64,000 nt of DNA from Octopus vulgaris (taxonomy: Eukaryota), in assembly GCA_951406725.2 (NCBI GenBank), contig OX597817.1, positions 62,868,001 through 62,932,000 of the forward strand. The letters are read 5' to 3'. The translations under genes and the position numbers were made by a program. Below the pieces are notes generated by a model. The model was not told the DNA's origin. It worked only from the letters and a program-made list of their open reading frames with translations, and made no database searches. Below, in pieces: positions 26,868 to 64,000 of this stretch. Every line of letters starts with the position of its first letter. Position 1 is the first letter of the stretch.

Positions 26868-27929
26868 AAAAATGGAGTTAACGTAGGTGTAAACAAATAT
26901 TTTTACTTTCAACACATGTTTCGAAAATTCCACTGATACTATTCAAAAGAATAAATGGTATAAACAATGCAATCTTCTCCTCAGGAAAGTGAAAAAAACG
27001 AAACTCGTCAATAAGACATTTTAGCAAAAAATGATGGATTTGTATAGCGATAGACAGAACGCTATTAATATTGTTTAAAAAAACGTTAAATGATATAACG
27101 TCATAAGTAGCTAACAGAAAGAGTAAGGATATTAATAGTGAATGTCAAATATAAAGGAAATTAAAGTTTAAATTATATATAATGATAGAGACTACTTATA
27201 TGCACTAAATGTATGTTTTTGCCAATGCTTACATCTGTATGCTCATTCTATAACTGTGTTTACTAGAGTATTTTTAGAAAAAATAATGAAAAATAGCTCA
27301 GAATTGCAGAGAAGACAGAATTTCTTGCCTTTGTCATATGGTATCGAAATTGAGAGGATCAACCATTCTAAATGAAATTGTTCATTGTGGTCTTTTAAAT
27401 CCCAAATCAGTTTGCTGAGACCGGTACTATTCCGTTTATTTCTATCCCTAAATGTTGAGTAATGGATAGAAATTTATTTTAGATAATTCTAACGATGTGC
27501 TTCCAATGTAAAATCGTACTTTATTACGAGTACTGATTATACACTGGTATATATAATTTTTAATCTTAGAGTTACTTGACATAAATTTAATTCTATTGGA
27601 ATTGACTTCAGATACAATAACCTTGTTATTAATATTTCTAGAGGGCTGGATGGTATTAGCTAAATTAATGTTAGTATTAGTAAATGTATTAATATTTAAC
27701 AGTTTGTTATTATGAGAAGATATAATTTGCAAGAGATTTTTTGTGTTTGAAAAACCTATCCTAACCTTATGTGAATTAATTATAGAGTAATATCTAGAAT
27801 TGTTTGGAAAATTCCTAGCAATAGCTTGACGAAACAGCAGTGGGAGATTAGATTTAATTTGTCTCCCGTAAGGAATTATTAACCAAATATTTTTATTAGT
27901 ATTCATAGCGTAATTACTTTTGAAGGTGT

Positions 27930-27930
<1 letters not shown>
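26868..27930 (-). mobile_element. Penelope-like (Naiad-type) element 3' fragment: GIY-YIG endonuclease, 3' UTR and hammerhead
   Basis: NYIYQC..FYIGST (GIY-YIG) and CLFC..CKH; clearly homologous to 63200-64000; frameshift and stop present. Confidence 0.9.
26905..26989 (-). ncRNA. Type I hammerhead in the Penelope 3' UTR (sense)
   Basis: ACTTTC-CTGAGGA-GAAGATT..AATTTTC-GAAAC-ATGT-GTT-GAAAGT; 6-bp stem I. Confidence 0.85.
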
Positions 27931-28182: not shown

Positions 28183-28600
28183 TCAACCGTGTTTCGTGGT
28201 CTGCTACCACAACAGCTCCTTTATAGGATCCAGTTAGCTCAAGACATCATCAGGAGGGACCACGTCCGGTTTCGGCCCCTACTCCTCTACCGAGGCAAAT
28301 GTTCCAGCTCTGGTGTTGAGTGCATGTCTTCTTTCTTCTGTTCCCTGGCCTCTTCGATGTAGCATCAACGAGTGTCAGCGGGCGACTGACTGTATGGTGA
28401 AATTTAGCTTTAAATATCAGGTCATTCTTAGTGATACTGGTAACATATAATCCAATGCAACCTTTCGCATAATCGGGCCGTCGGTTACTAAATACTACAA
28501 AGTGAGCTCGATAAGGGATGAGGGTGGCTTCGTTGGATACTTTGCAGGATGATAAACAAAACCTGTCAAAGTGTAAAATCAATAAAGTTCACGACCATCC
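28183..28600 (-). mobile_element. Highly decayed Penelope-like 3' end with hammerhead-like motif
   Basis: TC-CTGATGA..ACCAC-GAAAC-ACG-GTT-GA at 28183-28255; upstream YRAH..F..R and WNICL weakly resemble a GIY-YIG C-terminus. Confidence 0.4.
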
Positions 28601-35505: not shown

Positions 35506-35690
35506 TGTATGCATATATTTTATTTATTACACTATTGTATGACTGAGCGCCCTCGAGTCGATTCGACTCGATTCGTTTCGTTTCGTTTCGTTTCTTCTTC
35601 TTCTCTAAGCCAGTTTTTATTTATAATTATGACGCGATACTCTATTACTCTTTCTTCTCTCTTTATTTCACCCTCTTTGACTTCCTTCCC

Positions 35691-35744
<54 letters not shown>

Positions 35745-36435
35745 TCCTCATCTCTCTCACATCCGGGTCGATAAACGTCCTTTCGTTGGCGGCCTGCTTC
35801 AAGTAAACATGTTTCTTCTACGCTGGGGAAATTTTCCTTCGTCTAAGCCTATAGGCCCTTATTGCTTGTTTTCCTGTCCTGTTTTTATTCCTTCTTGTAC
35901 TGTATTTTTTTGTAATTGTATTTTTATTTTTGTATTTGTTTTAACTGTATTGTTTTTACGTCCTGTTTTTGTCACAATTTTTTTTCCTTGTTTTTGCCCC
36001 TCTGCGAAGGATTTTTATTTAATTCCTTCGCAGGAAGGATTAGTTCAACGAGACGTGTCCTGTCCTACCTTCGAAACACGCTGGAGTTGAACTAGGGACA
36101 GCTGATGAAGGCGATTTTTCCTGTGTAGTTTGTCTTGTACCCTGTTTTTTCGTTGTTTAAAAGAATGGTCCGTTCCCTGCTTGTTTTTACTTTTTCGTTT
36201 TCGTTTTTCGTTTTTTGTTTCTCGTTTAGTTCTACGTCTAATTGTGGTGTCCTGTACTCACGTATATATATTTATATATGCATGTATATATACATATATA
36301 CATGTAGATGTAGGTACATACATATATGTATTATGTATGCATATATTTTATTTATTACACTATTGTATGACTGAGCGCCCTCGCGTCGATTCGATACGAT
36401 TCGTTTCGTTTCGTTTCTTCTTCTTCTCTAAGCCA

Positions 36436-46849: not shown

Positions 46850-47002
46850 AGTGGCAGCGAAAGTGGAAAATCTGAAATACGAAATGAACTGGAAATTTTA
46901 ATCTTTGAAAGCTTGTTCTTATTTCGGCATGGAGGTGGCGGTTGTGGTGGTTATGGTGGTGGTGGTGAAGGTGGTGGTGGTGGTGGTGGTGATGGTAGTA
47001 GT

Positions 47003-48219
47003 GGTTTGTGGTGGTCGTCGTCGTCGTGGTGGCGCGGCGGTGGTGGCGCTGCGGTGGTGGCGCGGCGGTGGTGGAGCGGCGGTGGTGGCGCGGCGGTGGT
47101 GGCGCGGCGGTGGTGGCGCGGCGGTGGTGGCGTGGCGGTGGTGGCGCGGCGGTGGTGGCGCGGCGGTGGTGGCGCGGCGGTGGTGGCGCGGCGGTGGTGG
47201 CGCGGCGGTGGTGGCGCGGCGGTGGTGGCGCGGCGGTGGTGGAGCGGCGGTGGTGGCGGCGGCGGTGGCGCGGCGGCGGTGGCGCGGCGGTGGTGGCGCG
47301 GCGGTGGTGGCGCGGCGGCGGTGGCGGCACGGCGGCGGTGGTTTAGTGCTCGACGCCATCTTATAGCCAAATACATTCCACTCTAAAGCACCCACATTTT
47401 TCTTGTATGCAGAAGACTCATGATTCGTTCCACTCAGTCGAATTTGAATGCTTTTTAACTAAAATGTCTCATAGATTTTAACCGCGAAGTTAAGTAATCA
47501 GAAAAAATCGTTTGTTTCATTTACCAAATTTTCATAGACTGTTTTCCTTGTCTTAACTGTTACAGGTTTGTGGTGGTCGTCGTCGTCGTCGTGGCGCGGC
47601 GGTGGTGGCGCGGCGGTGGTGGCGCGGCGGTGGTGGAGCGGCGGTGGTGGCGCGGCGGTGGTGGCGCGGCGGTGGTGGAGCGGCGGTGGTGGCGCGGCGG
47701 TGGTGGCGCGGCGGTGGTGGAGCGGCGGTGGTGGCGCGGCGGTGGTGGCGCGGCGGTGGTGGCGCGGCGGTGGTGGCGCGGCGGTGGTGGCGCGGCGGTG
47801 GTGGCGCGGCGGTGGTGGCGCGGCGGTGGTGGCGCGGCGGTGGTGGCGCGGCGGTGGTGGCGCGGCGGTGGTGGCGCGGCGGTGGTGGCGCGGCGGTGGT
47901 GGCGCGGCGGTGGTGGCGCGGCGGTGGTGGCGCGGCGGTGGTGGCGCGGCGGTGGTGGCGGCGGCGGTGGTGGCGCGGCGGCGGTGGTTTAGTGCTCGAC
48001 GCCATCTTATGGCCAAATACATTCCACCCTAAAGCACCCACATTTTTCTTGTATGCAGAAGACTCATGATTCGTTCCACTCAGTCGAATTTGAATGCTTT
48101 TTAACTAAAATGTCTCATAGATTTTAACCGCGAAGTTAAACAATCAGAAAAAATCGTTTGTTTCAGTTACCAAATTCTCATAGACTGTTTTCCTTGTCTT
48201 AACTGTTACAGGTTTGTGG
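47003..48219 (+). repeat. Tandem duplication, each unit a GC-rich 14-mer minisatellite (GGCGCGGCGGTGGT)n plus about 225 bp of unique DNA
   Basis: Units 47003-47564 and 47565-48210; GGTTTGTGG at all three junctions. Confidence 0.95.
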
Positions 48220-50180: not shown

Positions 50181-50340
50181 AAATTAAAGTCCAAATGAGG
50201 GTGGAAAAATTGTATATTAATTTAGTAACATCAATTTAACACCAGTGGTTTAGCGCATTAAAAACTGAGATTCAGCAAATAATATTATTAATACACATAT
50301 GAGACAGATTCTCTCTCATATGTGTATTATATATATATAA

Positions 50341-52152
50341 AGAGGTCAAGGATTACTCTCTCGCTCGAATTCCATCCCTCGAAGAGGTCAAAATTGCTAT
50401 CACAGCGATGAAGAACAACAAAGCCGCGGGTCCTGACGGAATCCCAGCTGAGATTTACAAACTGGGAGGTGATTTTGTCCAACACCAGCTCCACCAACTC
50501 TTGGTCAAAATCTGGACAAATGAAGTTGTACCATCCGACTTCAGGGATGCTAACATCATTACCATTTACAAACGAAAGGGCGATCGTTCTGAGTGTGGAA
50601 ATTACCGGTGTATTTCTTTATTAGCAACTGCTGGAAAGATTCTTGCACGCATCCTGAACAACCGCCTCAAAACGCTGTCAGAGACGCAGACCGGCTTTAG
50701 GCCATCACGAAGCACAACCGACATGATCTTCACGCTGCGACAGCTACAAGAAAAATGTCGTGAGCAACACCAACCGCTCTATTTGGCCTTTATCGACCTA
50801 TCCAAAGCCCTTTGATCGTGTCTCGCGAGAGCTCCTCTGGGATATTCTCGCCCAGTATGGATGCCCAGATAAGTTCATCTGGATCCTCAAACTCCTCCAC
50901 GACAATATGCACGCCAGAGTCCAGACCGACGGAGGCAGTTCTGAGCCCTTTAAAGTCACCTCCGGAGTGAAGCAAGGCTGCGTGATAGCGCCAACTCTCT
51001 TTACCATCTTTATCGCGACAGTGTTGCACATCATACGAGATGACCTTCCACCTGGCATCGAGATCTCGTGCAGAATGGACGGCAAGCTTTTCAACCTCGC
51101 TCGCCTCAAAAGTACGTCAAAGACAATGGCGCGAAGCTTGCTAGAGTTCCAATATGCCGACGACAACAGTGTAGCAGCTTACAGAGAGGATCACCTCCAA
51201 CAGATCCTAAATGCTTTTCATCATGCATATACTAAACTTGGACTGAGCATCAACATCAAGAAGACTCACTTACTCTACCAACCTCCTCCCAATGCCCGTG
51301 TTGACAACCCGCCATCGATTCAACTCGAAGGAATTCCACTGGAAAATGTGAACCATTTCTGCTACCTTGGGAGCCATCTGTCAGCAAAGGTAGACCTCAG
51401 CGATGAAATCCAACACCGTCTGAAGTGTGCAGGAACAGCTTTCGGCAAGCTTTGAACAAGAGTTTTTGCTGATCGGGACATCCGAACCGAAACCAAACTC
51501 ATGGTGTACAGGGCAGTCATTATTCCAACCCTCCTTTACGCATCCGAAACCTGGACCCCGTATAGTCACCACCTGAAAACGCTCGAGAAATTTCACCAAC
51601 GCTGTCTTCGGAAGATCCTTAACATCAGCTGGGAAGACAGAAGAACAAACGTCAGCGTGCTACAAGAAGCAAAAATGACCAGCATCGAAGCCTATGTCAT
51701 CAAAGGCCAACTAAGATGGAGCGGCCACGTGGTTAGAATGACTGACGAACGACTTCCCAAACAGATCTTCTACTCCCAACTCAAAGACGGCAAGCGTACA
51801 AAAGGAGGCCAGAAGAAACGCTACAAGGACTCCCTGAAAACGAACCTCAAAAAGTGTGACATCGACTTCACTAACTGGGAGGAAACGGCAAAAAACAGAC
51901 CACTCTGGAAAACCACCATCCATGAGGGAACGGCGACTTTCGAGTCGAAAAGGTCTGCAGAGCTGGAGGAGAAAAGACGACGACGGAAGGAGCGCCAACA
52001 ACAACCACGTGCGACTCTCCCTTCCGGCACTAGATGTCCGCATTGCGACCGATCTTTTCAAGCAAGAATTGGTCTTATCGGTCACCTACGGACTCACCAG
52101 TAAATTTGCGCGAAGACCATCATCCACGACCTTGAGGGATTGCCATCATCAT
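50341..52152 (+). mobile_element. 5'-truncated RTE-clade LINE (RT plus C-terminal C2H2 finger), with one frameshift and one stop
   Basis: KAAGPDGIPAE, QTGFR, FIDLSKA/FD, GVKQGCVIAPTLF, YADD, YLGS, QLRWSGHVVRM, CPHC..HLRTH; frameshift at about 50810, TGA at 51453; (CAT)3 tail. Confidence 0.97.
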
Positions 52153-59974: not shown

Positions 59975-60036
59975 GTGTGTGTGTAACCGTGGACATGTAG
60001 GGAAATACACATAACATACGGAGCTAGCGAAGGAAT

Positions 60037-60104
60037 CACCCGTCTTCAGCTATCTATGTACTGAATATTAGGGGTTTCGAAAAGTGTGGACAATACTGCC
60101 AATA
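60037..60104 (-). ncRNA. Candidate strand-permuted hammerhead, second family
   Basis: TATTGGCAGT-A-TTGTCC-A-CACTTTTC-GAA-ACCCCTAATA-(10 nt)-AGATAG-CTGAAGA-CGGGTG. Confidence 0.5.
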
Positions 60105-60790
60105 GTGCTCCGTTGTCAGCAACAACTCGCACATTCGCTTGCTCATATAGTTTAGCGCAGACGAGACGCAAAAGACATGAAAATATGTTGAATTTTAACG
60201 ACTGTATCTTAGGAAATTCGTTCGACAAGGAAAAGTGTATTCTTAAAGGCTAAACTTTAGCTGCTAGAACAAAAAGGAAAGAGATCAACTGTGAGTTATG
60301 ACAAAAATAACGCAAAACAGCACAAGAGTATGGTGCGTATGTAGAAGAGAGGAAAAATATTCTGTCAGCTACAGAAAGGTGAAGCAGAGCAGTTAGAATA
60401 ACAGTTATTTACTGAGCTAAATAGACTGACTAAGATATATGAGAGACCTGACCGTAAGTCAGGATATAAAATGAGAAATATGGGGGTATAAGAACAAAGA
60501 GAGGAAGAGAAATGTAGAGTGAGATTGTGTGTATATATATATATATATATACACTTGGAAATGGATGTGTGGCGTTCAATCATATACTAATATAAATAAT
60601 ATATATTTGCATATATACATATATATATGTACATACTTACATAAATGTGTATATTCATATGCATATATGGGTACAGGACATCATAAAACGTAAACAACAT
60701 GAAATAAGAGATACGAAAACATGGAATACAAACGTTTTTGTGAACAACAAAAGAAACAAATGGAAAACAAGACAAGTAGCATAAAGAACA

Positions 60791-60865
60791 ACCCTTCTTC
60801 AGTTGTCGGTTGCTTTATCTACTCCAAATTTCGGACTATTACAATAAGATATGTCTTCGAGAAAT
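60791..60865 (-). ncRNA. Candidate strand-permuted hammerhead, third copy
   Basis: CATAT-C-TTATTG-TAATA-GTCC-GAA-ATTTG-(16 nt)-CGACAA-CTGAAGA-A-GGGT. Confidence 0.55.
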
Positions 60866-61336
60866 CAGTTGCTCACGCAAAGCAAAAAAAATATTTGGAA
60901 TTTGCGGAGGGTCAAAGTTGGTAACAAAAACAGGACAGTGAAAAGAAACAGTAAAGTCTGCTAAGCTATAATGAGTTGAGGTGGCGAACGCTGTAGGATC
61001 AAGCTTTGACAGGAGAAAAGATAGAAGAAGAGACAGACAAGAATGCGTGTGATTTTGTTGCAGATCAAAAGGAAAGAAAGAAGCTCAAGTTTGATCAACG
61101 AAAGAGTAAAAGAAGAAGAGTGAGAAAGAGAGAGGGACAGATAGAGAACGGAAAAGGGGAGAGAAAAGGAATTAGAGAAGGGATGAGAGACAAAAAGAAA
61201 GAGGGGCAAGGGGAGATAAAGAGAATAAGAGAAAAGAAGAGAGAGGACACGAAAGGGAGAGAGAACAGTACAGAGAATCACATCAAAATTATTAAGTTAA
61301 ACTTACTTGAAATGGATGCGTATAATTCAATCATAT

Positions 61337-61392
<56 letters not shown>

Positions 61393-61470
61393 GTTTAAAT
61401 ATTTGTTGTGCAAGATTTTTTATATAAATGAAAGAATGGAGTTGAACGACGATTTAACAAAATTCCTTTA

Positions 61471-61553
61471 TTCTCGACATATGTTTCGAAGACTGCATAT
61501 TCCTAATTCCGAAGGAATAAGGGGTGCATTATGCCGCCTTCTCATCAGGAAAG
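61471..61553 (-). ncRNA. Type I hammerhead in the inverted pseudo-LTR
   Basis: TTTC-CTGATGA-GAAGGC..GTCTTC-GAAAC-ATAT-GTC-GAGA; 6-bp stem II, palindromic ACATATGT. Confidence 0.88.
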
Positions 61554-61680
61554 ACAAGGAACTTATGTCAGCATCATGACGAACAAAAATTTTTAGATGA
61601 CTGCCCACACGGAGTCCATGGTGATAGTGAGTGTTTCTTTAAAATATTCCGTTATAAGCAGTGACGTCAAAATTGGTTGA

Positions 61681-64000
61681 ATGGAGAAGAGTATCGACGC
61701 CTCTTTTGAATATAAAAAGTTATTTAAGTCGAGGGGAACCCCTCCACCTAATCCCAGACTGAAGAAATTTGAAGATTATCTGTGGGACATCGTAAGGGAC
61801 ATTAAATTCTGTAAATCGCCCCTTACGAATAAACACCTCAAATACCTCGATAAAGTCACCAGAGATATAAACAGATTAGACGCGATCCTGGTCCAATCGG
61901 ATAAAACCGGGAACATATATAAGCTTACAAGGAACCAGTATTTAGAAATGATCAAGAAAGAAATACTTAAGAATTACAGGACAACAAGTAGGAATACACT
62001 CAGACAAGCCAACTTAGAAATTAAGAAAATCATGGAAACGTATGGATTACAAATGAAAACACAACCGCTGAACCCCAGACAACCAAGATTCATCGTTAAG
62101 GACCATAAACAGAACTTTCCTACCAACCCAGCATTAAAGCTCATATGCCCTTCTAGTTCCGACATCGGTACCCTTAGTAAGTACATTTTAGATAAATACA
62201 TACCTATATTAATTAATAAGTTAAAACTCAGCTTATGGTCTAACTCCACTCAAGTCGTAGAGTGGTTTACTTCTATTACTAATAAGGACAACACAAAATT
62301 TATACAATTCGATATATCTAGTTTCTACCCTTTGATCAACCCTAGTGTACTCAATAAGGCCCTATGGCACGCACATAATAAGGCAGGCCTCTCCAGGGAG
62401 GAAATTAATGTGATATTAGCGGTTAGAAAATCTTTCATACAGTTCGATAAGTTGTGGGTCCGCAGAGATACCCCCAACGCGTTCGATGAGCTAATGGGAA
62501 GTACAGACAGCGCCCAGATAGTCGATTTGGTCGGAATCTATATTCTCTATGAATTGGCCGACCAATTCCCGGACATCTGTGGCGGTCTATATCGAGACGA
62601 TTGTCTACTTTACCTCCAGAATGCTCCGAACAATAGGGTACAGAAGACTAAGAACAGATTAGCTAGATTATTTAGCAGAATGGGCTTGAGCATAGTTTTC
62701 GACGACGAATTAACTAAAGTCAACTTCTTAGATGTTACCCTAAATCTGCAGAATAATTCATACTTCCCTTATCATAAGCCTTCTACTAATCTTAAATATA
62801 TCAGCATTTTCAGTAACCATGCCAAAACTGTTACCAATAATTTAGTTTTAAATATTTCTTTAAGACTGTCAAAATTATCTGCTGATGTCGACATCTTTAA
62901 CCAAAAAGCGGAATTTTATAATGCCGCCTTGTCAAAAGCCGGTTATAGAGATAAAGTATCATATAACGACCCGGCCCATTCTAAACCAATATATGCTTCT
63001 CAGGATAAGAAAACTAATAACAATAGAAATAGTGAGAATAATGATTTCAGCTCTAACAACGTCGACACCACTAGACTTAAGAAAAATAATTTACGGACCA
63101 GGGGAGGCAATCGGCAACCAACCCCAAATTTCCAGCACAGAAATATTCCCTTTAATGTAAATGGTAACACTCTGAACAATTCTATGTCCACAAAAATACT
63201 ATATCTGCTTTGTCATACCTTTCGGAAAACAAATCAAGTCTAACCTTCCTTTACAGTTCCGTGAAGCCGTAGCTAGGAACTTTCCCAGGAATTCTAGGTA
63301 TTACTCTACTATCAATTCGCATAAGGTAAGGATTGCATTCTCTAACACTAGAAATCTACCGCAAATTATTGCCTCCCATAATAACAAGCTGCTAAATAAG
63401 GATTCTTCACCCGGGAGTCACGACACTGCCCTTACCAATTCCAACCAAACATACAATAATAATAATAATAATAGAAATAGTATTGATAATAGCAACATTC
63501 ATAGCAGCGTTGGCATTAACAATAATAGGAATAGTATAGTGGTCAGTGCTAGCAATAATATTAACAGCAATCATAACAATAAAAACTCCGTCTTAGTCTC
63601 GGATGTAAACCCTAACAGATTAAAGTTCTTGTCCAGCAATTCCAAAATTAGAAATTCCATTTACCAGTGTAAAATTTCTTCCGGTACCGGTGTCTTCTTC
63701 TACATTGGGGCGACTACTTCTAAATTATCCCAGAGGATTTCCAATCATTATTCAACTTTCCGAGATAAGAGAAAACAACAAAGCACAGGACTAAGTAAAT
63801 TAGTTTGGCGCCTTAAGGACAGCAATATAACTTTCAAGCTGGAATGGTCCATATTGTCTGTATCCTTTCCGTTTGATAAAGGCAGAAAATTTTGTGGCGT
63901 CTGTAATTCCGAACTTTTCCATATACTTTTCGCCAAATTCCCTTTGGTAAACACAATGGTAGAAAAATCGTATAGGTGCATGCACTGGCAGAAACACACC
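61681..64000 (+). pseudogene. Penelope-type reverse transcriptase and GIY-YIG endonuclease, frameshifted near 63200
   Basis: KDHKQNF, FDISSFYP, MGSTDSAQIVDLVG, GLYRDD, VNFLDVTL, SNH; in the second frame SIYQC..FYIGAT..RISNH..CGVC..CMH. Confidence 0.92.

Follow-up and report, generated by a model that had tools for sequence, protein, structure and literature searches.

A likely decayed hammerhead motif in an Octopus vulgaris tandem repeat, with a predicted opening between A9 and G10.1 and a probable tie to Naiad-type retroelements

Described hammerhead layouts and the motif at 60k

Six layouts of the hammerhead ribozyme were distinguished by Eckert, Friedrich, Weinberg and Weinberg (2023; PMC10085705), among them type SGC, which includes HRIMA-1 and its variants, and type CSG, which is known from two sequences. 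In the accessible parts of that paper, the list of six assumes that at most 1-2 nt lie between CUGAnGA and stem I or stem II, the non-circular layouts come almost only from the environment, and the SGC ribozymes, validated from metatranscriptomes, are stated to be missing from the genomes of known organisms. Retroelements harbor a different form, the type I hammerheads of Penelope-like pseudo-LTRs and of non-LTR retrozymes (PMC4209133; bioRxiv 10.64898/2026.07.22.740005), for which the available portions of these papers give the circular CGS order and a minimal stem III that needs dimers. Penelope-like hammerheads can accommodate a bulged base at A9/10.1 (PMC4209133, in part), and variants with additional helices are reported in the accessible text of PMC13725137. 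Canonical hammerheads were stated to be absent from the Naiads (Craig et al., 2021; PMC8557442, in the parts at hand), some of which, including octopus and squid families, are labelled 'HHR_core' or 'HHR_half_core'; the lack was taken as a sign that hammerheads may be dispensable for Penelope-like elements or parasitic on them.

Here we analyze a hammerhead-like motif on the minus strand of a 64,000-nt window (the whole stretch of DNA that was analyzed; Octopus vulgaris, contig OX597817.1), hereinafter the 60k copy, the opened layout of which covers 60036-60164. We consider it likely, at a probability of roughly 65%, that this is a decayed copy of a hammerhead with a predicted opening between A9 and G10.1, in a new layout tied to Naiad-type retroelements. 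From 5' to 3', the order would be IV' - hairpin V - II - x - III' - NUH cut site - I' - short linker - II' - GAAA - III - x' - I - CUGAnGA - IV. Such an arrangement would be a circular permutation of pseudoknotted type SGC, closed between x and III and reopened between A9 and G10.1, with helix x replacing the stem I-II interaction helix and helix IV clamping A9 back beside the start of stem II, next to hairpin V. Hairpin V, stems II and III and helix x would fold during transcription, stem I with the CUGAnGA strand late, and helix IV last. The elements of the 60k copy are as follows.

60158..60164, minus strand: helix IV, 5' strand, outside the segment described in the sequence-only reading
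60137..60156, minus strand: hairpin V, with only 3 pairs remaining; an alternative at 60159-60128 has 5 pairs
60134..60136, minus strand: best-scoring upstream stem II strand, 3 pairs, ambiguous; alternatives start at 60144, 60128 and 60111
60125..60133, minus strand: helix x, 5' strand in the best parse
60112..60126, minus strand: small hairpin, probably within an insertion of ~25 nt not shared by the 36k and 60.8k copies (see below)
60095..60104, minus strand: stem III, 5' strand, 8/10 pairs with 60066-60075
60094..60096, minus strand: cleavage triplet GUA (block S), read from the sequence
60089..60093, minus strand: stem I, strand after the cut site, 5 pairs with 60050-60054, two of them G-U
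60079..60083, minus strand: stem II, 3' strand (11.1 onward), U-rich, probably decayed
60066..60078, minus strand: block G, GAAA (60078-60075) and the stem III 3' strand
60057..60065, minus strand: helix x, 3' strand, linking stem II to stem I, 9 pairs with one bulge; an alternative parse has 6/6
60043..60054, minus strand: block C, the stem I 3' strand and the core CTGAAGA (60049-60043)
60036..60042, minus strand: helix IV, 3' strand, directly after A9, 7/7 pairs with 60158-60164, three of them G-U

All invariant elements of the hammerhead core (CUGAnGA, GAAA and NUH) are present, in the non-circular order GUA, GAAA, CTGAAGA (S-G-C), and the core at 60049 does not parse in the circular CGS, GSC or SCG orders with nested stems. 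An earlier sequence-only reading had claimed the minus-strand GUA, a stem I of 5 pairs including two G-U, an extended stem III with 8/10 pairs and a spacing of 26 nt between GAA and CTGAAGA, equal to that of the 36k copy; each of these features was recovered at the positions listed above. Next to the core, stem III consists of an A-U and a G-C pair followed by two mismatches at positions 3 and 4, the 5/5 pairs of stem I are consecutive but start with U-G, and helix IV can slip by three bases, taking up the end of the core.

By hammerhead numbering, the predicted cut is between 60094 and 60093, after the NUH triplet, and would proceed by ordinary hammerhead chemistry. The mismatches in stem III, the G-U first pair of stem I and the 3-pair stem II would have abolished activity; judging from these letters, the 60k copy probably no longer cuts, and we put the chance that it does at 10% or less.

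Three other copies were identified in the window.

35995..36115, plus strand: the 36k relative, the best preserved (V 10/10, II 5/5, x 10/10, III 5/5, I 7/7), with a weak helix IV (3 pairs, a mismatch, 1 pair)
60789..60914, minus strand: the 60.8k copy, a decayed fourth motif within monomer A (see below), with CTGAAGA at 60802, helix IV 7/7 and 6 pairs in hairpin V; it can also be read as SGC
28241..28330, minus strand: the 28k motif, with S-G-C blocks (I 4, III 4, IV 6/6 pairs)

The cut-site, stem I and stem II' letters of the 28k motif closely resemble, by eye, a Naiad consensus from a distant phylum (probably Naiad_Plae, within the part of the published file at hand), and a second GAAA/NUH pair downstream permits a weak type I reading of the same motif.

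Upstream and downstream partners of stem II

With type SGC as described in the available text of PMC10085705, the motif shares the order of cut site, GAAA and CUGAnGA, the short I-II linker, a helix joining the far ends of the stems and the core letters. It differs in that the 5' strand of stem II lies upstream of the cut site, in that the additional helices IV and V are placed at A9/10.1, and in that the predicted opened layout is found in animal genomic repeats rather than in metatranscriptomes. The main text of Eckert et al. (2023) does not include the opened layout among the six, and it is not described in the accessible portions of PMC3088659, PMC10162972, PMC13725137 and two bioRxiv preprints. 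Within the accessible full-text literature, neither non-circular hammerheads in Penelope-like elements nor an A9/10.1-opened hammerhead was found, and the term 'type-SGC' occurs in one paper only.

The wiring turns on the partner of the stem II 3' strand. In the a-c-b arrangement of the sequence-only reading, stem II is poorly formed, whereas an upstream strand combined with helix IV fits better at 36k and probably at 60k. At 60k, a downstream stem II has a mismatch at 10.1-11.1 or, with a 1-nt bulge, 3 consecutive pairs (one G-C and two G-U) and 5/7 overall. Upstream, four candidate strands form 3-4 pairs each, and the assignment is ambiguous because the 3' strand is U-rich, so that several strands serve; a parse that places stem II at 60111, behind the small hairpin, was rejected because it did no better than three others. 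In monomer A, the closest relative, a 1-nt bulge allows the strand after the core to form a true SGC stem II with 7/7 pairs, and 7/7 pairs are likewise present in helix IV. At 36k, the downstream stem II ends after 2 pairs, whereas the upstream strand forms 5/5 Watson-Crick pairs directly behind a 10-pair hairpin. Given that the strand after CUGAAGA pairs better with the upstream strand (helix IV, 7/7), the partner of stem II is probably upstream as well.

The upstream helices were also evaluated with the S-G-C part fixed and the upstream bases alone shuffled (300 shuffles). Helices II, x, V and IV of the 36k copy score 67.5, compared to 29.8 +/- 11.2 in the shuffles, none of which (0/300) is as good; the 60k and 60.8k (monomer A) copies both score 43.5, a value reached by 6/300 and 3/300 shuffles, respectively. 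At 28k, neither an upstream stem II nor helix x was found, and 235/300 shuffles score equally well. Single-strand folding of the 60k region is no better than that of shuffled sequences (z -0.23), such folding being unable to show pseudoknots.

Under an alternative that we regard as rather improbable, the 60k copy is a decayed ordinary type SGC ribozyme, in which the strand following CTGAAGA makes stem II across a 1-nt bulge and the upstream pairing is a relic or an alternative, inhibitory fold. The block order is indeed SGC, the downstream pairing at 60k (3 consecutive pairs, 5/7) and in monomer A (7/7) can be accommodated, and the tail of one published Naiad consensus, Sdum (name by file order, from the excerpts at hand), reads by eye as true type SGC. 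However, the downstream pairs at 60k include just one G-C and one A-U, the 36k copy combines 2 downstream pairs with a full upstream stem, and the corresponding pairing in the metagenomic family described below amounts to 24%. A stem II strand within 1-2 nt of CUGAnGA, as in type SGC, is weakly formed at 60k (3 consecutive pairs), possible in monomer A (7/7) and found neither at 36k nor in the 22 copies of that family; a helix that connects stems I and II at their distal ends is present, with 9 pairs and a bulge at 60k and 10/10 pairs at 36k.

A metagenomic family and the tails of Naiads

A pattern scan of metagenomic contigs yielded at least 120 loci, from 7 of 64 contig parts, and 22 of these loci represent a single repeat family; the other 98 of the 120, including the inspected locus L191, are mostly GC-rich with scores of at most 61 and were left out as lying outside the family. 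The family consists of two subfamilies and is, by eye, close to a published Acropora consensus. Over the 48 proposed pairs, 91.6% of the cells in the alignment of the 22 copies pair, compared to 25-47% in slid controls. Two-sided changes were observed in helix I (C-G in 11, U-A in 9 copies), helix IV (U-A in 11, A-U in 8) and helix x (U-A in 11, A-U in 9, the only two-sided change in this helix, which is 95% paired); all three split the two subfamilies, and accordingly they amount to three events rather than many. Stem II formed with the upstream strand is 91.7% paired and has one-sided changes only, in part as a result of the search pattern, in which the last three bases of this stem were prescribed.

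In one of these loci (L176), the motif lies 326 nt behind the end of a reverse transcriptase reading frame. A relative of this frame, P0029 (858 aa), contains an N-terminal GIY-YIG remnant, CxC and DKA and has no C-terminal nuclease, which are the Naiad diagnostics in the parts of PMC8557442 at hand (N-terminal GIY-YIG, CxC, DKA, no C-terminal nuclease). On the strength of the L176 frame and of these features, we assign the 22-copy family to Naiad tails. Pfam provided no name for any reading frame tried.

We then read by eye excerpts of File S5 of PMC8557442, in which motif layouts could be assigned in 18 of the 54 consensus sequences and three were left unparsed. Within these excerpts, 11 Naiad tails have the opened layout with unrelated helix sequences, namely (names by file order) Bfor (with a short stem I), 3_Chem, Amil, Aacu, Anas, 2_Movir, probably Plae (part 12), EuTe, Obim, Ovul and, more weakly, Esco. 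In these 11 tails, a hairpin lies upstream of the cut site; the strand immediately following it is the partner of the strand before GAAA, and the bases that precede it are complementary to the strand after CUGAnGA. Six other tails in the excerpts (Parc, 2_Nbra, 3_Nbra, Hcon, Hpol and Smim, by file order) read by eye as clean type CSG. No such motif was noticed by eye in the last 600 bases of the Mmer, Omin, Adux, Tama, 1_Chem and 1_Movir consensuses in the same excerpts. As judged from the sequences, the predicted opened layout is clean at 36k, in the 22 metagenomic copies and, by eye, in the 11 Naiad consensuses.

The window copies are similar to Naiads, as far as these are described in the available text, in having the core words in a 3' tail, next to (TA)n, in a partial tandem and as old cephalopod remnants, and the octopus and squid Naiad consensuses in the excerpts have the same opened layout by eye. 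They differ in having no linked reading frame, and for the HHR_core labels the accessible parts of PMC8557442 give no fold. A search of the window with tblastn and a profile detected no Naiad coding remnant. A covariance model built from the 22 metagenomic copies did not find the 60k copy and found the 36k copy only at E 4.8; the link between the window and Naiads thus consists of the layout, the tandem and TA context and the by-eye likeness to octopus Naiads, and not of detected homology.

Among the 23 and 121 loci from two pattern scans of viral contigs, no family had the opened layout, the top scores being GC-rich and chance-like, and no Naiad loci were found in the viral and prokaryotic contigs searched. 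A GC-rich viral contig with short inverted motifs (L092:135-260, plus strand) parses as the opened layout with a score of 61, possibly by chance.

The layout could also be real and conserved without being self-cutting, if the retroelement tail folds into a docking or regulatory domain with hammerhead letters, or it could cut only together with protein; this appears to us unlikely. In the portions of the respective papers at hand, known alignments never have more than 1-2 nt between CUGAnGA and the stems (Eckert et al.; PMC10085705), and an Anolis Penelope-like element has a hammerhead that needed protein for cutting and was dispensable for insertion in vitro (PMC11167929). The invariant core, the NUH triplet and stems I-III, however, are kept in register across families whose helices are unrelated in sequence, and the short I'-II' linker together with the helix linking stems I and II resembles the active SGC ribozymes, which speaks against this alternative.

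Shuffled controls and the host repeat of the 60k copy

All descriptors employed were built after examples were known. The a-c-b descriptor (at least 4 pairs in stem I; 7/9 pairs in stem III, or its first 4 paired) has three matches in the window, with block C at 36102 (plus strand), 60049 (minus) and 28253 (minus). Block-wise dinucleotide shuffles contain on average 0.026 matches, with at least one in 24/1000 and at least three in 0/1000, a significance that is overstated because the thresholds were chosen once the matches were known. The four-block scan (IV' - V - II ... S ... GAAA ... CUGAnGA - IV) scored 12 candidates in the window: 73 for 36102 (plus strand), 48 for 28253 and for 60049 and 46 for 60802 (all three minus strand), the rest being at or below 40. 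In 150 shuffled windows, the mean number of candidates scoring at least 46 was 0.04, the top score was 52, and 48 or more was reached in 3/150; among GC-rich pattern matches in viral contigs, ~10% reach 46. CTGAnGA itself occurs 37 times in the window, compared to 23.7 in shuffles. A scan of the window against Rfam (E up to 1) shows no hammerhead family among the 150 matches listed of 171, those listed being only microsatellite-driven miRNA matches. The claim of the sequence-only reading that a permuted hammerhead recurs in the window is borne out in the form of a non-circular hammerhead-like motif, above chance, in different repeat copies.

The repeat that hosts the 60k copy consists of the following parts.

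61345-60555, minus strand: monomer A, the first unit of an old tandem
60555..60598, minus strand: terminal motif, at the monomer border beside TA repeats; common to 61345-61305, 35520-35551 and 36366-36379
59985..60530, minus strand: monomer B, a pyrimidine-rich non-coding unit holding the 60k copy and ending in a (CA)n/(TA)n array; as the second unit of the tandem it spans 60555-59985

The two tandem units, A and B, are both decayed and very divergent. The terminal motifs of A and B align with a score of 57, compared to 20 in shuffles (0/300), and the 36k unit carries this motif twice, likewise with 0/300 shuffles as good in the comparison with monomer B. Monomer A aligns with the 36k element in three segments, two of which extend beyond the terminal motif (0/300 shuffles each). 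The sequence-only reading had placed the 60k copy in an apparently unrelated repeat with flanks that do not match the other copies. The immediate flanks indeed have no detectable similarity to those of the 36k or 60.8k copies (138-234/300 shuffles as good), but the terminal motif ~530 nt upstream is common to both (0/300 each). The repeat is not unrelated, because it is the second monomer of a tandem whose first monomer aligns with the 36k element, and it is thus a distant relative of that element via the 60.8k copy. When the 60k copy is aligned with those at 36k and 60.8k, hairpin V seems to have undergone a deletion, and ~25 nt seem to have been inserted ahead of stem III.

That the 60k motif arose by chance from short words, with only the 36k copy being real, is very improbable: shuffled windows do produce such matches (24/1000 and 3/150, above) and the immediate flanks are unlike those of the other copies, but the 60k copy lies ~535 nt behind the terminal motif (~530-535 nt, compared to 533 nt in monomer A and ~560 nt at 36k) and its spacing from GAA to the core is practically equal to theirs (26-27 nt across the three).

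In monomers A and B and in the 36k unit, the terminal motif is repeated beside TA arrays (a partial tandem with (TA)n insertion); this structure is not diagnostic of Naiads because it is common to other Penelope-like clades. The host repeat of the 60k copy is likely an old non-coding tandem that originated from the tail of a Penelope-like retroelement. If active, cleavage would trim the tandem transcripts of such an element to monomers, and cuts in both A and B would release ~750 nt. The accessible parts of PMC4209133 and bioRxiv 10.64898/2026.07.22.740005 describe a comparable setting for type I hammerheads, namely a Penelope-tied non-coding tandem and tolerance of an extra base after A9; unlike these, the 60k copy has a long stem III arm and the pseudoknotted order.

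Paralogs were sought in the contigs of 4 of 24 public sequencing runs at 80% likeness; these contigs are filtered and show presence only. They contain one full-length 60k piece with a single difference, at 60129, one piece ending at 60098 and one 91% piece over 60145-60330, with nothing in the fourth run, and no paralog covering the 60k motif was found in this set. The missing close paralog fits an old family and is no proof of absence.

The window is AT-rich, full of microsatellites, and contains several other elements, as follows.

61681-63243, plus strand: 520-codon Penelope-like reverse transcriptase frame with a DKT motif, the best hits of which include Argonauta and Octopus proteins
61470-61555, minus strand: type I hammerhead just before this frame on the opposite strand, like an inverted pseudo-LTR copy
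26984 (minus), 33224 (minus), 37744 (plus), 54606 (minus) and 61548 (minus): at least five well-formed type I (CGS) hammerheads, of which those at 26984 and 61548 are related
27448-27930, minus strand: GIY-YIG-like frame, followed by the hammerhead at 26984
2097 (plus), 1728 (minus) and 36582 (plus): three minimal palindromic hammerheads, by eye
1632-2193: inverted pair of a 208-nt repeat with a minimal Penelope-type hammerhead in each arm
50303-52103, plus strand: broken reverse transcriptase frames of a non-LTR retrotransposon, which we take to be RTE-like from their appearance
46900-48030: two GC-rich arrays of a 14-nt-period repeat, ~600 nt apart

The frame at 61681-63243 was considered as the parent of the 60k repeat and rejected: it is on the other strand, contains DKT, which is the mark of the Hydra clade in the available text of PMC8557442, barely aligns with P0029 and has its own type I hammerhead.

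Implications for Naiads and non-circular hammerheads

We return to the reading that we prefer, in which the 60k copy is a decayed hammerhead opened between A9 and G10.1. An opened fold of this kind would explain why Naiads were taken to be without a hammerhead. A broader version of this reading, for which we see roughly even odds, is that the A9/G10.1-opened arrangement is an active seventh wiring and the regular tail ribozyme of many Naiads, from ctenophores and cnidarians to crustaceans and cephalopods; Naiads would then be the main home of non-circular hammerheads, along with types CSG and SGC, and the 60k copy would be a fossil of this ribozyme. The three pseudoknotted forms found in Naiad tails are mutual circular permutations, which hints at how they may have originated. 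Should the opened layout cut, the list of hammerhead layouts would grow, animal genomes would count among the places where non-circular hammerheads reside, and the clade that reaches the highest copy numbers could serve to test what ribozymes do in Penelope-like transposition.
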